Below, piece after piece: positions 10,410 through 20,987 of a stretch of 32,000 nt of DNA. The translations under genes were made by a program, and so were the position numbers. The stretch lies in assembly GCF_009872365.1 (NCBI RefSeq), contig NZ_WXYH01000111.1, forward strand, positions 127,791-159,790. Direction: 5' to 3'. How positions within the stretch are numbered: position 1 is the first letter of the stretch; each line of letters opens with the position of its first letter. A model generated the notes under the pieces. The model made no database searches and was not told the DNA's origin. It saw nothing but the letters and a program-made list of their open reading frames with translations. Origin of the DNA: Rhodococcus sp. T7. GTDB lineage: Bacteria > Actinomycetota > Actinomycetes > Mycobacteriales > Mycobacteriaceae.

Positions 10410-13400
10410 TCAGAGACCGCGGTCGATCAGGTCCAGGATCTCCTCACTCGTCGCGGCGTGAATCTTGTCGACCGCGGCGGCATGCGCGTCGTCGGACGTT
10501 CCGACCTCGGCGAGGAGGCTTCCGAGGCGTTGCGCGATGGCCGACCGCGCCTCGGCGTCGTCGCCGAGTTCGGCGATGGTGGCGCGCAGCCGGTCGACGT
10601 CGGCGAGCGCCACCGACATCGGATCCGGGACGAGTTCCGAGCGCAGGAACTCGGCGACGGCCCGCGGGCTCGGGTGGTCGAACACCATGGTCGGCGGCAA
10701 CCGCAGTCCCGTGGCGGCACCGAGATGGTTGCGGAGCGCGACGGCCGCGAGTGAATCGAAGCCGAGTTCCTTGAACGCCTGATCCGGGTCCACCGAGTCC
10801 GACGCGTCGTAGCCGAGCACCGTGGCGGCCCCGCCCCGCACCAGGTCGAGCATCAGGTGCCGCTGCTCGGGGATCGACAGGTCGGCGAGTCGCTGCGACC
10901 AGTCCGACGGCCCCGACCCGTTCGGCCCGGTCACGACCGAGTCCGATCCGGCGGCGTGCGGGCGCGACTCCCGGATCAGGCCCCGCAGCGGCGGGGGAAC
11001 GTACGGTGCGGCCGAACCGGAGTGGTCGAACCGCGCGGCGGCGACGGTGGGGGCACCCGCGGCCAGCGCGCTGTCGAACAGGGCGAGGCCGTCCGCTGCG
11101 GGCATCGGCACCATCCCACTGAGACGGGCGCGGGCGAGGTCGATGGCACCGAGGTTGTCGGTCATGGCGCTCGGTGTCGCCCACATGCCCCACGCGATCG
11201 AGAGCCTAGGCAGCCCGAGCGCGTGCCGGTGATGGGCGAGGGCGTCGAGGAACATGTTCGCGGCCGCATAGTTCGCCTGCCCGGGAGCGCCGAGGACGCC
11301 GGCGAGCGAAGAGAACACGACGAACGCCCGCAGATCGCTGTCCGCGGTCAGCCGGTGCAGATTCCAGGCTGCGTCGACCTTCGGCCGCAGGACCGTGTCG
11401 AGTCGCTCGGGTGTCAGCGACGCCAGGGTGCCGTCGTCGATCACCCCTGCCGCGTGGACCACCGCTGTCAGGGGATGCTCGGACGGTATCCCCGCCAGCA
11501 ACCCGGCGACCGCCGACTCGTCCGCGGTGTCACATGCGACGATGCTCACCTCGGCGCCCAGATCGCTCAGTTCGCGGCGCAACCGGTCGCTGCCCTCGGC
11601 GCCGGGTCCGCGCCTGCTGGTCAGCAACAGGTGCCGGACTCCGTGCTCGGTCACCAGGTGGTGGGCGACCAGAGACCCGACCGTCCCGGTGCCGCCGGTG
11701 ACGAGCACGGTGCCGCCGGGATCGAACGTCGTCGGCTCGTCGACGGCGGGCATGCGCCGCAACCGCGGTGCGCACAGCGTGCCGTTCCGGGCCGCCACCT
11801 GCGGTTCCCCGCTCGCCAGTGCCGACGTGATCGCGGCCTCGGCGTCCGACGCGTCGTCGAGGTCGATCAGTACGAACCGGTCCGGGTTCTCGTTCTGCGC
11901 GGAGCCCACCAGGCCCCACACCGCCGCGGCCGCGAGGTCGGGACGGGCGTCGTGGTCCTGCCCGTCGTCGGTGACCATGGCGTTGCGGGTCACGATCACG
12001 AGCGGGTTGTCGGCGAACGTCTCGTCGTCCTGCCAGTCCTGCAGCAGTCGCAGCACCCGCGCGCACAGTTCGTGGGTCGCGTCCGGACCGTGGTCGCCGT
12101 CGGTCGCGCACCCGACGAGCACCGTCCACGGACGCCGGTCGTCTTCGTCCGGCCCGGATTCCATCGCGGTCCGCAACGACTCCAGGTCGGGACACCCCGG
12201 GAACGTCGAACCGATACCCGGGTCGCCGAATCCGTCGGAGCCGAGAACGACCACCGGTCCGCGCGGCCCGGACGGCGCGGCCTCCACTCGGATCCAGGCG
12301 GTCCGGTGCAGTCGCAGCGGAGCCGGACGGCCCCCGTCGACCGTCCTCTGCACCACGCGCAGCGCCTCGACGGTCAGCACCGGCTCACCGGCGGGGTCGA
12401 CGGCGGTGATGCGATGCCGTCCGTCGTCGCCGGGTGTGAACCGGGCGGTCACCGCGTCCGCACCGACGCTGTGCAGACGGATCCCCGACCAGGTCTGCGG
12501 CCGGCCGTCCCACCCGAGGAGGGGTTCGATCGCGGCCTGCAGCAGCACCGGGTGGATGCCGAACCCAGACGTGTCGACGCCGTCCCCGAGCCGCACCTCG
12601 GTTTCGGTGTCGACCGGATCCTGTTGCGGCACTGCGGTGGACGAGCCGACGACGTCGTCGATTTTCGCCGACGCGTTCCGAACCCAGCTGTCCGGGCTGT
12701 CGGTGTCGCCCGACTTCGACGACACGGTGACGGTGCGTGCCCCGGTGGTGTCCGGCGGCGACACGAGGACGCGGATCGAGGCCAGCCCCGACGTCGAGAG
12801 GACGAGCGGGTGGTGCAGGGTGAGTTCGTCGATGTGGTCGAGGCCGACGTGGTGGGCCGCGTGCAACGCGAGTTCGACCGGCACCGCGGGCAGCACCGTC
12901 TGTGCCTCGCTCGCCGACGGGGAGTCGCCGTCGTCGACCGGCGGTGGCACGAGCCAGGGGTCCCGGTGCAGCGACAGCTGTCCGGTGAACAGGGTCGCGT
13001 CGTCGTCGAGGGTCACCGCGGCACCGAGCAGCGGATGATCGGACGGGGTCAGTCCCAGTTCGGTGGGATCGCCGGTGTTCCGGACCGATGCCGTCGGCCA
13101 GTAGGAGCGGCGCTGGAATGCATACGTGGGCAGGGCAACCCGGCGCCGGCCGGGCAGCACCCGATCCCAGTCGACCGGTGCGCCCTGCACGTAGGCGGCG
13201 GCGACCGCCGCGATGATCCCGTGCGCCTCGTCGTCGGTCCCGGGAAGCGTGGCGATCGTGTTCGGCACGACCTCGGCGGCGAGTGCCGCCAGGGTTGCGC
13301 CGGGACCGACCTCGACGAGGCGGGTGACGCCGAGTTCGTCGAGGGCGCGCACGCCGTCGTGGAACCGCACCGTGTGCCGGATGTGCCGGGTCCAGTAGTC

Positions 13401-19400: not shown

Positions 19401-20987
19401 GGCGGCGCGGTGGTCGAACGTGGCACGGGAACCCAGCAGGGCGCCGGCCACCGCGGCGGGTGTCAGGTCGGGGTGGCCGCTGACGTACTCGCGTAACCGC
19501 TCGGCCTGGGCGCGCAGTGCGGGCTCGGTGTGTCCCGACACGAACCAGGCGACGACTTCGTCAGGGGGACGCGGCGGTTCGGCGTCCGACGGTTCGATCG
19601 GCGGCGCCTCCTCCAACACGACGTGAGCGTTGGTGCCGCTGATGCCGAACGACGAGACCGCGGCCCGGCGGGGACGGTCGGATTCGGGCCACTCCCGGTT
19701 CTCGGTGAGCAGCGACACCGCACCGGCGGTCCAGTCGACGTGCGGGGTGGGCCGGTCGACGTGCAGCGTTTTCGGCAGGACGCCGTTCCGCATCGCCATG
19801 ATCATCTTGATCACCCCGGCGACGCCCGCGGCCGCCTGGGTGTGCCCGAGATTCGACTTCACCGAGCCGAGCCACAGCGGCCGGTCGGCGGGGTGCTCGC
19901 GGCCGTAGCCGGCCAGGAGGGCGGACGCCTCGATGGGGTCGCCCAGTTTCGTGCCGGTGCCGTGCGCCTCGACCACGTCGACGTCCCCGGGCCCGAGTCC
20001 CGCATTCGCCAGCGCCTGCGCGATCACCCGCTCCTGCGCCTGCCGGTTCGGTGCGGTCAGTCCGTTGCTGGCGCCGTCCTGGTTCACCGCGCTGCCCCGG
20101 ATGACGGCCAGGATCCGGCGACCCTTGCGTTCCGCGTCGGACAGCCGCTCCAGCGCGACCATCCCCGCGCCTTCACCCCACGCCGTGCCGTCCGCCGCGG
20201 CGGAGAACGCCTTGCACCGCCCGTCGCGGGCCAGTCCGCGCTGACGGCTGAACTCCACGAACACCGCGGGGGTCGCCATGACCGTCGCCCCGCCCGCCAG
20301 CGCCAGTTCGCATTCGCCGCTGCGCAGCGCCTGCATGGCCAGGTGGATGGACACCAACGACGACGAACACGCGGTGTCCACCGTGATCGCGGGACCGTTC
20401 AGTCCGAAGCTGTACGCCACCCGGCCGGACGCGACGCTCATCGCGTTGCCGGTGATGAAGTAGCCCTCCAGGTCCTCGGGCGGCATGCCGCCCGCCCGCG
20501 CCGCGTAGTCGATGCCGGACAGCCCGGTGAAGACGCCCACCTGCCTGCCGTGCACCGACCGCGGGTCGATGCCGGCGTGCTCGAACGTCTCCCAGCTCGT
20601 CTCCAGGAGAAGCCGTTGCTGCGGGTCCATCGCCAATGCCTCGCGCGGCGAGATGCCGAAGACCTCGGGGTCGAACCCGGCGGGGTCGTCGAGGAAACTG
20701 CCCTGCACCGTGTACGTCTTGCCGGCCTGCTCGGCCTTCGGGTCGTAGAGATCCGCCAGGCCCCAGCCGCGGTCCTCGGGGAAACCGGCGACGGTGTCCG
20801 ACCCCGACTCGACCAGCCGCCACAGGTCCCGCGGCGAACGCACACCGCCGGGGAACCGGCAGCCCATGCCGATGACGGCGATCGGTTCGCGGCTCACGCC
20901 CTCGACCTCACGGAGCTTCTCCCGCGCCTGATAGAGGTCCGCGGTGACTCGTTTCAGATAGTCGAGGAGCTTCGCCTGATCGGCCAT
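10410..20987 (-). CDS. Bimodular type I polyketide synthase, 3525 aa: Ndock-KS-AT-DH-KR-ACP-KS-AT-DH(inactive)-KR-ACP-Cdock
   Basis: All domain signature motifs were read directly from the translation (see the domain features). No ER, TE, loading AT/ACP or methyltransferase domain is present. Confidence 0.95.
10413..10625 (-). other. PKS C-terminal docking-type tail, aa 3455-3525
   Basis: A helical Ala/Asp-rich tail ends in ...[13 protein letters not shown], resembling C-terminal docking domains of non-terminal modular PKS subunits. No GxSxG thioesterase is present. Confidence 0.6.
10632..10871 (-). other. ACP2, aa 3373-3452 (Ser3412)
   Basis: [13 protein letters not shown] motif. Confidence 0.88.
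11172..11717 (-). other. KR2 ketoreductase catalytic subdomain, aa 3091-3272, B-type
   Basis: GGTGTVG, I-D-D at the LDD position (3183-3185), and SSLAG...YAAAN. Confidence 0.8.
12333..13040 (-). other. DH2 dehydratase-like domain, aa 2650-2885, catalytically degenerate
   Basis: Where DH1 has [18 protein letters not shown]2 has [25 protein letters not shown]: the His is lost and about 10 aa are inserted. No YGP motif is present. [10 protein letters not shown] replaces [10 protein letters not shown] (Asp to Gln2817). Confidence 0.75.
13173..14111 (-). other. AT2 acyltransferase, aa 2293-2605, malonyl-CoA-type motifs
   Basis: GHSIGE (Ser2386), [10 protein letters not shown] and RAFHS (2482-2486, an xAFH motif). 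Confidence 0.75.
14418..15695 (-). other. KS2 ketosynthase, aa 1765-2190 (active Cys1938)
   Basis: DTACSSS (Cys codon at 15174-15176), EAHGTGT and KSNIGHS. Confidence 0.9.
15753..15986 (-). other. ACP1, aa 1668-1745 (Ser1705)
   Basis: [13 protein letters not shown] phosphopantetheine attachment motif. Confidence 0.88.
16263..16808 (-). other. KR1 ketoreductase catalytic subdomain, aa 1394-1575, B-type
   Basis: GGTGTIG NADPH site, SSAAG...YAAAN catalytic residues, and L-E-D at the LDD position (1483-1485). The preceding roughly 190 aa are the structural KR subdomain; there is no room for an ER. Confidence 0.8.
17373..18182 (-). other. DH1 dehydratase, aa 936-1205, catalytic motifs intact
   Basis: [10 protein letters not shown] fits HxxxGxxxxP (His968 codon at 18084-18086). 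YGPAF (1092-1096) and [10 protein letters not shown] (Asp1135) are present. Confidence 0.85.
18339..19295 (-). other. AT1 acyltransferase, aa 565-883, methylmalonyl-CoA-type motifs
   Basis: GHSQGE (Ser657 codon at 19017-19019), RVDVVQP and YASH (758-761). Confidence 0.8.
19608..20888 (-). other. KS1 ketosynthase, aa 34-460 (active Cys207)
   Basis: DTACSSS (Cys codon at 20367-20369), EAHGTGT and KSNLGHT are all intact. Confidence 0.9.
20889..20987 (-). other. PKS N-terminal docking (coiled-coil) region, aa 1-33
   Basis: [29 protein letters not shown] sits immediately before the KS, the pattern typical of N-terminal docking helices in modular PKS subunits that receive a chain in trans. Confidence 0.65.

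Follow-up and report, generated by a model that had tools for sequence, protein, structure and literature searches.

How does a modular polyketide synthase (PKS) that has neither a loading domain nor a release domain start, extend and release its chain? This question is raised by a gene of Rhodococcus sp. T7 that lies within the 32,000 nucleotides of contig NZ_WXYH01000111.1 analysed here (positions 127,791 to 159,790, hereafter the window). The gene encodes a reducing type I PKS of two modules that is self-contained, specific to Rhodococcus and alone in the regions examined. The single most likely reading, which we hold with a confidence just short of even, is that homodimers of the protein would dock head to tail and pass the chain through repeated two-module cycles, as has been proposed for Pks12, the mycoketide synthase of Mycobacterium tuberculosis. 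This reading is preferred because there is no loading or release domain and no evident partner PKS, because the two ends of the protein are conserved and match one another, and because Pks12 provides a precedent.

Domain architecture and predicted chemistry

From the list of open reading frames and their translation, the gene is a single frame of 3525 amino acids initiated by ATG (Table 1). Its third-position G+C content (GC3) is 0.90, a typical coding value for a genome of about 70% G+C. Pfam searches, carried out with the whole protein and with each module, and inspection of the motifs give the order dock-KS-AT(methylmalonyl)-DH-KR-ACP-KS-AT(malonyl)-DH*-KR-ACP-dock, where KS is a ketosynthase, AT an acyltransferase, DH a dehydratase, KR a ketoreductase, ACP an acyl carrier protein and DH* a degenerate dehydratase. 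There are, then, ten catalytic or carrier domains, one of which, the second dehydratase, is dead. The domain order and the length of the frame had been read from the letters alone, and both are borne out. So too are a docking helix placed directly before an active KS1, and a docking-type tail, 77 residues long, which follows ACP2 in place of a thioesterase (TE) or reductase. The motifs that the same reading had picked out in the acyltransferases, GHSQGE/YASH in AT1 and GHSIGE/RAFH in AT2, are both present; the extender specificities given here are those predicted by published motif rules. With KS, AT and ACP domains and their catalytic residues in both modules, the protein is a type I modular cis-AT polyketide synthase. 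It scores 3620 bits against the NCBIfam model NF045894 (cutoff 1740), a generic model that was alone above threshold, and no specific NCBIfam equivalog was found for it. The best PDB matches for the KS-AT of module 2 are of the CurL/GfsA type.

No Pfam match to an enoylreductase (ER; ADH_zinc_N) or to a thioesterase was obtained with the whole protein or with either module. DH and psiKR are separated by only 61 residues in module 1 and by about 225 residues of degenerate DH in module 2, and neither module has room for an ER. At the 5′ end, no start codon is found in the window between the upstream stop and the ATG of the PKS, and in Rhodococcus sp. NPDC057529, R. opacus 1CP and R. tibetensis (loci L001, L002 and L004) the stop-to-stop frame starts just two to three codons ahead of the conserved methionine. 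There is, therefore, no hidden upstream loading domain. The two dehydratases differ: DH1 has the motifs HPML, H968xxxGxxxxP, GYEYGPAF and DxxxH, whereas DH2 lacks the catalytic histidine (WLVPPPV...), lacks GYxYGPxF and has a glutamine in place of the aspartate. All three losses are found in each of the five orthologues compared. Outside the window, orthologues are carried by the three genomes just named and by R. wratislaviensis (L003) and R. oxybenzonivorans (L083/L084).

The chemistry can be predicted by applying domain rules, which are established knowledge, to this map; the starter unit, self-docking, iteration, the number of cycles, the release enzyme and the product are all inferred. 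KS1 would take a fatty acyl thioester directly as its primer. In module 1, methylmalonate would be added, which the B-type KR1 would reduce and the active DH1 dehydrate to give an (E)-2-methyl-2-enoyl unit. Module 2 would then add malonate and, having an active KR2 but a dead DH2, would halt at the 3-hydroxy stage. One pass would take R-CO-S to R-CH=C(CH3)-CH(OH)-CH2-CO-S and so lengthen the chain by C5H8O (84.058 Da). If dimers dock head to tail, ACP2 of one dimer would pass the chain to KS1 of the next, and each two-module cycle would add one further -CH=C(CH3)-CH(OH)-CH2- unit. Since the PKS has no TE, release would be expected to occur in trans, and the best candidate for it is a WS/DGAT O-acyltransferase, discussed below, which would give an esterified methyl-branched hydroxy-alkenyl lipid.

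The pattern of selection was estimated by the Nei-Gojobori method in comparisons with R. tibetensis and R. opacus 1CP. Purifying selection acts on the gene as a whole, with ratios of nonsynonymous to synonymous substitution (dN/dS) of 0.17 and 0.12, respectively, at dS of 0.58 and 0.33. By domain, dN/dS is 0.04 for KS1, about 0.03 for the ACPs, 0.22 for DH1 and 0.51-0.53 for DH2. Both termini are under purifying selection and are conserved like the catalytic domains, with dN/dS of 0.03-0.09 for the N-terminal docking domain and 0.06-0.19 for the C-terminal tail. Across the five orthologues, which are 82-96% identical overall, the columns are invariant at 88% of the positions of the N-terminal docking domain, 85% of those of the terminal helix and 52% of those of DH2, with 77% for the protein as a whole, and the final 20 residues are identical. 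DH2 is under relaxed constraint yet has not been deleted, as would be expected of a structural relic.

These values bear on the idea that the gene is a decaying remnant, without current function, of a horizontally acquired Streptomyces-type PKS cluster. Its nearest relatives outside Rhodococcus are indeed modular PKSs of Streptomyces, Actinomadura and Micromonospora, at about 40-45% identity, and DH2 is both dead and faster evolving. However, the frame of some 3500 codons is intact in 6/6 genomes examined, four of which were read end to end (the copy in L003 stops at the end of its contig and that in L083 lacks the first ~220 codons), all the catalytic residues outside DH2 are retained in the orthologues, and dN/dS over the gene is as low as stated above. 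The selection analysis effectively excludes a remnant, an explanation to which we give almost no credence.

Docking ends and their compatibility

By sequence, the PKS carries class-1 (DEBS-type) docking domains, namely an N-terminal coiled coil and a helical C-terminal tail. When the N-terminus was searched against the PDB with phmmer, it was matched best by the corresponding ends of Lsd14 and DEBS modules. For the tail, an end-to-end alignment was obtained with the ACP-docking chain 7S6B_E (E 0.047), and it also aligns with 49 natural class-1 C-terminal docking domains. Single-sequence AlphaFold2 modelling of ACP2 with the tail, which was confident for the tail helices only and poor for the ACP, predicts helices at residues 3456-3474, 3478-3494, 3499-3511 and 3514-3522, with pLDDT of 71-79. 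A further argument, that the best PDB matches of the two ends form one cognate pair (7S6B, chains A and E), was dropped, chain E being unconfirmed as the upstream partner of Lsd14.

To compare the two ends, 58 distinct adjacent pairs, in which a gene ending in an ACP and a tail is followed by a gene beginning with a docking domain and a KS, were collected from 75 non-Rhodococcus loci and presumed to be cognate. The 49 pairs of class 1 served to calibrate a nearest-neighbour docking score. The N-terminal docking domains closest to that of the PKS are from Micromonospora (L072/L025), Actinomadura (L038) and S. iranensis (L014), and the C-terminal domains that precede these in their own clusters are the ones closest to the tail of the PKS (..ATPDEVFDFIDRELG and ..ATGEEIFDFIDNELG). 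Other subclasses of N-terminal domain pair with visibly different C-terminal domains (..DDELFDLLDDELG, ..DDDLFDFIGKEFGIS). With its own C-terminus paired to its own N-terminus, the PKS has a z of 1.83. The median for cognate pairs is 1.90, a value inflated by homologous clusters in the reference set; random pairings of C- and N-termini have a mean of 0.14, a standard deviation of 0.90 and a 95th percentile of 1.95; and the own ends of nine genuine internal subunits have a mean of -0.44 and a maximum of 1.02. Since the score of the PKS resembles those of cognate pairs and not those of internal subunits, its two ends belong to one matched docking subclass, unlike those of genuine middle subunits. 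This comparison supports Pks12-style self-docking, without proving either self-docking or iteration. It is in keeping with the suggestion, in the sequence-only reading, that the two termini might dock with each other, as is the purifying selection on both of them.

The same ends could also belong to a stand-alone enzyme that is used only once. In that case a fatty acyl primer would be extended by exactly two units to a 3-hydroxy-4-methyl-alk-4-enoyl chain, which a trans-acting acyltransferase or hydrolase would remove; the coiled coil and tail helices 1-2 would serve the homodimer only, and the terminal helix would recruit the off-loading enzyme or another non-PKS partner. Colinear single use of each module is the default in DEBS-type PKSs, the closest relatives of this one, no chain-length control is evident, the WS/DGAT gene is directly downstream in two species, and about 6% of random pairs match the self-docking score. 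On the other hand, the terminal helix is a class-1 docking helix of the textbook kind and aligns with C-terminal domains that precede N-terminal domains like that of the PKS itself, true single-use internal subunits have mismatched ends of their own, and in Pks12 the same end architecture drives iteration. Recruitment of a neighbour is not obviously needed in the R. opacus group either, where no off-loading enzyme is adjacent. A single pass seems to us possible, though rather doubtful.

Genomic contexts and a candidate release enzyme

Orthologues were sought in one genome per species, with residues 2640-3525 as the query, and were found in Rhodococcus only. Over this region the identity is 96% in Rhodococcus sp. 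NPDC057529, 88% in R. opacus 1CP, 88% in R. wratislaviensis and 75% in R. tibetensis; the next matches are assembly-line subunits of Streptomyces, Actinomadura and Micromonospora at 39-45%. The R. oxybenzonivorans protein is 82% identical to that of the window and 89% identical to that of R. tibetensis. A search of a large protein collection with the DH2-psiKR2 region returned fragments only and no full-length orthologues. One of these, P0001, has 562 residues with 93% identity to the KR2 region and was deposited under the name 'Streptomyces sp. NPDC058171'; it probably comes from a mislabelled or contaminated assembly and is not a Streptomyces orthologue.

The window is collinear with the loci of Rhodococcus sp. 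NPDC057529, R. opacus 1CP and R. wratislaviensis across about 23 kb. In R. tibetensis, the PKS alone is homologous to the window (82% at the nucleotide level) and the flanks differ, with a gene for an AI-2E transporter upstream and genes for a WS/DGAT, a 4HBT thioesterase and paa/beta-oxidation proteins downstream. The R. tibetensis and R. oxybenzonivorans loci share a block of PKS and WS/DGAT and nothing further, their flanks being otherwise unrelated. The PKS gene, therefore, is found alone in at least two independent genomic contexts, and there is no second PKS beside the orthologue on either flank in R. tibetensis or on the downstream side that was read in R. oxybenzonivorans. The proposal that the PKS stands alone is thus upheld: the same architecture occurs in two unrelated contexts with no partner PKS within reach. 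Published surveys agree: one gene of this family was found in each of R. opacus PD630, R. opacus B4 and R. jostii RHA1 (Holder et al, 2011, PMC3169528), and there are one to two type I PKS (T1PKS) clusters in each Rhodococcus genome, one of which is pks13 (Ceniceros et al, PMC5550956).

These observations also bear on whether the protein might be an internal subunit of a split assembly line, with loading and terminating (TE or R) modules bearing complementary docking domains encoded elsewhere on the chromosome. A middle subunit would normally have a docking domain at each end and neither a loading nor a release domain, as this protein does. Against this, relocation of the gene between at least two contexts has left it with no PKS neighbour, the surveys report just one gene of this family or one to two T1PKS clusters per genome, and compatibility between a protein's own ends is atypical of internal subunits. 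Split modular PKS clusters are, moreover, uncommon. We consider such an arrangement improbable.

How the chain might be released is suggested by the gene that follows the PKS in R. tibetensis and R. oxybenzonivorans. It begins 43 nucleotides past the PKS stop and encodes a WS/DGAT of 431-433 residues with an intact HHAMADG motif, at which it gives a weak match to the PapA5 model. Its adjacency to the PKS, in this one sub-lineage only, makes it a candidate trans-acting off-loading enzyme. No HHxxxDG acyltransferase lies beside the PKS in the window or in L001-L003, and a tblastn search with the R. tibetensis WS/DGAT gave no match in the window, L001 or L002; the WS/DGAT is, therefore, not a neighbour of the PKS in the R. 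opacus clade. On R. opacus-type chromosomes its orthologue is instead found between genes for an alpha/beta-hydrolase and DoxX_2 (L080, L081 and L087-L089), while in Mycobacterium members of the same WS/DGAT family have an HrpA-like helicase as neighbour.

Several points weigh against iterative head-to-tail synthesis with release by this enzyme. Members of the WS/DGAT family, at 68-86% identity, are common in both Rhodococcus and Mycobacterium and usually have no link to any PKS, so that the adjacency here could be positional and not functional. WS/DGATs also normally take acyl-CoA donors and not acyl-ACP. Within the window there is no acyltransferase, FAAL or reductase gene near the PKS. KS1 would need to accept beta-hydroxy intermediates as well as a plain fatty acyl primer. 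The clade of a KS would say little about its incoming substrate, since in cis-AT PKSs it tracks the cluster. As for the docking score, the references nearest to the PKS represent about two independent cluster families, adjacent genes are assumed to be cognate partners, and the proportion of random pairs that reach the PKS value was given above. Conservation of the N-terminal coiled coil and of tail helices 1-2 might reflect no more than a role in homodimerisation. In the literature searched, no characterised product, mutant or expression data were found for the gene, which is covered by Holder et al (2011) alone.

The genes of the window were called from codon-position G+C, Pfam and NCBIfam (Table 1). 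The sequence-only reading had listed a lipoprotein, a pirin and a PrmC-like methyltransferase as neighbours, and these are all there; its statement of what else the window lacks needs two qualifications, the FUSC_2 membrane protein and the acyl-CoA carboxylase. The carboxylase consists of biotin carboxylase, biotin carboxyl carrier protein (BCCP) and a long C-terminal extension, and lies 7 kb from the PKS, past ctaD and leuA. We take it to resemble the mycobacterial single-chain long-chain acyl-CoA carboxylases, and it could supply extender units.

Table 1. Features of the PKS and of its neighbours in the window, and position of the WS/DGAT gene at other loci. Residues are numbered on the PKS; limits of the Pfam match are given for each domain.
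Feature	Residues	Pfam match	Coordinates	Strand	Remarks
Whole PKS gene	1-3525		10410..20987	-	3525 aa + stop; orthologues 3524-3539 aa in five other Rhodococcus genomes
N-terminal coiled-coil docking domain	1-33	2-29	20889..20987	-	PF08990, 34-35 bits (cutoff 20.9)
KS1	34-410	34-410	19758..20888	-	active, C207/H342/H382
AT1	567-884	567-884	18336..19289	-	methylmalonyl-type, RVDVVQ/GHSQGE/YASH
DH1	936-1208	936-1208 (both halves)	17364..18182	-	full set of catalytic motifs
psiKR1 + KR1	1270-1570	1270-1570	16278..17180	-	B-type (LED), K/S/Y kept
ACP1	1676-1739	1676-1739	15771..15962	-	GFDSL
KS2	1765-2140	1765-2140	14568..15695	-	active, C1938/H2073/H2112
AT2	2296-2610	2296-2570	13158..14102	-	malonyl-type, TEYTQ/GHSIGE/RAFH
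DH2*, degenerate dehydratase	2651-2982	2651-2757 (N-half only)	12042..13037	-	
psiKR2 + KR2	2983-3270	2983-3270	11178..12041	-	B-type (IDD), K/S/Y kept
ACP2	3383-3448	3383-3448	10644..10841	-	GFDSL
C-terminal docking domain	3449-3525		10413..10643	-	helices 1-2 + terminal docking helix
Single-chain biotin carboxylase-BCCP acyl-CoA carboxylase			<1..3016	-	crosses left edge of window
CtaD			3430-5169	-	
LeuA			5340-7265	-	
Two ORFs without family match			~7395-8360 and 8362-8712	+	
Pirin			8803-9768	-	
DUF732 lipoprotein			9902-10315	-	lipobox LLTAC
TIGR03704 PrmC-related methyltransferase			21294-22124	+	divergent from PKS
ArsR-type HTH regulator			22190-22864	-	
DoxX (weak)			22950-23387	+	
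FUSC_2/YccS-family membrane protein			23459-25078	+	
Gamma-glutamyltranspeptidase			25113-27086	+	
GCS2-M20 fusion protein			27222-29606	+	
DUF4193			30059-30403	+	
SRPBCC protein			30413-30847	+	
FMO-like oxidoreductase			30938-31990	-	
WS/DGAT, R. tibetensis			L004:12725-14020		HHAMADG
WS/DGAT, R. oxybenzonivorans			L083/L084:10001-11302		HHAMADG

Some other features of the window were observed. Between positions 21215 and 21320, in the spacer that separates the PKS gene from the divergently transcribed gene for the PrmC-related methyltransferase, the alignment with L001 is interrupted, about 105 nucleotides having no counterpart in Rhodococcus sp. NPDC057529; this difference could affect the PKS promoter. 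The gamma-glutamyltranspeptidase gene is followed by that of an unusual 794-residue protein in which a GCS2 carboxylate-amine ligase (glutamate-cysteine-ligase-like) is fused to an M20 amidohydrolase, and the two may belong to a pathway for a gamma-glutamyl compound. The two frames without a Pfam or NCBIfam family have a strong third-position G+C coding signal, and the product of the first is rich in cysteine with a hydrophobic N-terminus. The SRPBCC protein, of the family named 'polyketide cyclase/dehydrase' in Pfam, shows no sign of a link to the PKS despite that name; it gives a weak match to the Rv0910 toxin family (31 bits, cutoff 100).

Comparison with known systems

A closely similar gene has been described before. 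OPAG_06239 of R. opacus PD630 was reported as a 'type 1b synthase' and Pks12 homologue, with 41% identity over 3527 residues, and a Pks12-like tail-to-head mechanism was proposed for this single-copy, two-module protein (Holder et al, 2011, PMC3169528). Judging from the organism, the length and the copy number, OPAG_06239 is very probably the orthologue of the window PKS. The central idea of the sequence-only reading had thus already been published, and its novelty was overstated. The present analysis adds a corrected map of the domains, evidence that selection on DH2 is relaxed, evidence of selection on the docking ends and of their compatibility, and the block of PKS and WS/DGAT. The published account credits OPAG_06239 with twelve domains and predicts saturated methyl-branched fatty acids as its product (PMC3169528). 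It conflicts with the domain analysis, which corrects it to ten domains with no ER and one dead DH, and the prediction of a saturated product looks wrong, because the window orthologue has no ER and its DH2 is dead. What emerges is an ER-less version of the idea of a Pks12-like stand-alone bimodular PKS, in a DEBS-type enzyme.

To our knowledge, head-to-tail, 'modularly iterative' synthesis has been shown for no PKS other than Pks12, and the model has had little independent support. The Rhodococcus enzyme, a DEBS-type protein with self-matched ends in a non-pathogenic, genetically tractable, oleaginous host, would be a clean test case of the Pks12 model, as its reduction pattern would give a diagnostic ladder of +84.058 Da. 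The question posed is whether self-compatibility of docking domains suffices to make a colinear PKS iterative, which is relevant to PKS engineering. The link to the WS/DGAT suggests a possible entry of polyketide chains into lipids of the wax-ester or triacylglycerol (TAG) type. Taken furthest, this would be, after Pks12 and independently of it, a second natural PKS to work in the 'modularly iterative' way, whose dimers would polymerise head to tail by self-matched class-1 docking and make a lipid with a repeating -CH2-CH=C(CH3)-CH(OH)- unit, esterified by the WS/DGAT into the neutral or envelope lipids of Rhodococcus. We put this fuller proposal forward only tentatively and think it, as a whole, unlikely; we know of no description of a lipid class with this repeat. 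If the enzyme works in a single pass, it would be an ordinary lineage-specific lipid PKS.

The likeness to Pks12 is one of architecture. Both are single polypeptides of two modules, with a methylmalonyl-type and then a malonyl-type AT (in the window PKS, as judged from motifs), both lack a TE and a loading domain, and both begin with a coiled coil and end with a helical linker of about 80 residues, elements that in Pks12 mediate head-to-tail supramolecular assembly. Pks12 is 4151 residues long, and the window PKS is shorter by about 626 residues, roughly two ER domains. Pks12 has full DH-ER-KR loops in both modules and twelve domains, whereas the window PKS has no ER and a dead DH2, and because of the latter its product cannot be a saturated mycoketide. 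In Pks12, which is primed by fatty acyl-CoA, N- and C-terminal helical linkers mediate intermolecular iteration; replacement of the N-terminal linker reduced synthesis to a single round, and a free peptide of the C-terminal tail was inhibitory (Chopra et al, 2008, PMC2443190). Neighbours of the ppm1/Rv2047c type, found beside Pks12 (PMC2443190), are absent from the window. The window PKS is thus an architectural analogue of Pks12 and not a demonstrated orthologue, and a relationship by sequence had been overstated: 41% identity is no higher than the 40-45% found with unrelated actinomycete PKSs. Orthology to Pks12 (Rv2048c) is unsupported, and both this identity (PMC3169528) and a higher score for DEBS than for Mas argue against it.

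In the PDB the window PKS scores 1486 bits against DEBS, 810 against Mas and about 540 against Pks13, so that its closest solved relatives are DEBS and Lsd14 and not the mycobacterial Mas or Pks13. By sequence it is a DEBS/Streptomyces-type cis-AT modular PKS. Internal subunits of the DEBS2/Lsd14 type share with it the highest sequence similarity, class-1 docking domains at both ends and the grammar of the modules. They differ in belonging to multi-gene clusters with loading and TE modules and in having mismatched docking domains of their own, whereas the window PKS is alone and its ends match. With Mas and PapA5 it shares, in R. tibetensis and R. oxybenzonivorans, the arrangement of a TE-less lipid PKS followed by a gene for an HHxxxDG O-acyltransferase; here, however, a WS/DGAT takes the place of the PapA, in the R. 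opacus group its gene lies apart from the PKS, and no FadD, FAAL or MmpL gene is nearby. A further parallel may be found in the mycobacterial trehalose polyphleate locus, where work attributed to Burbaud et al in 2016 is said to have proposed that a stand-alone Pks iterates to give a four-carbon repeat with one double bond (the phleic acids). That Pks reportedly uses malonate only, fully reduces one position of the repeat and is clustered with fadD23, papA3 and mmpL10.

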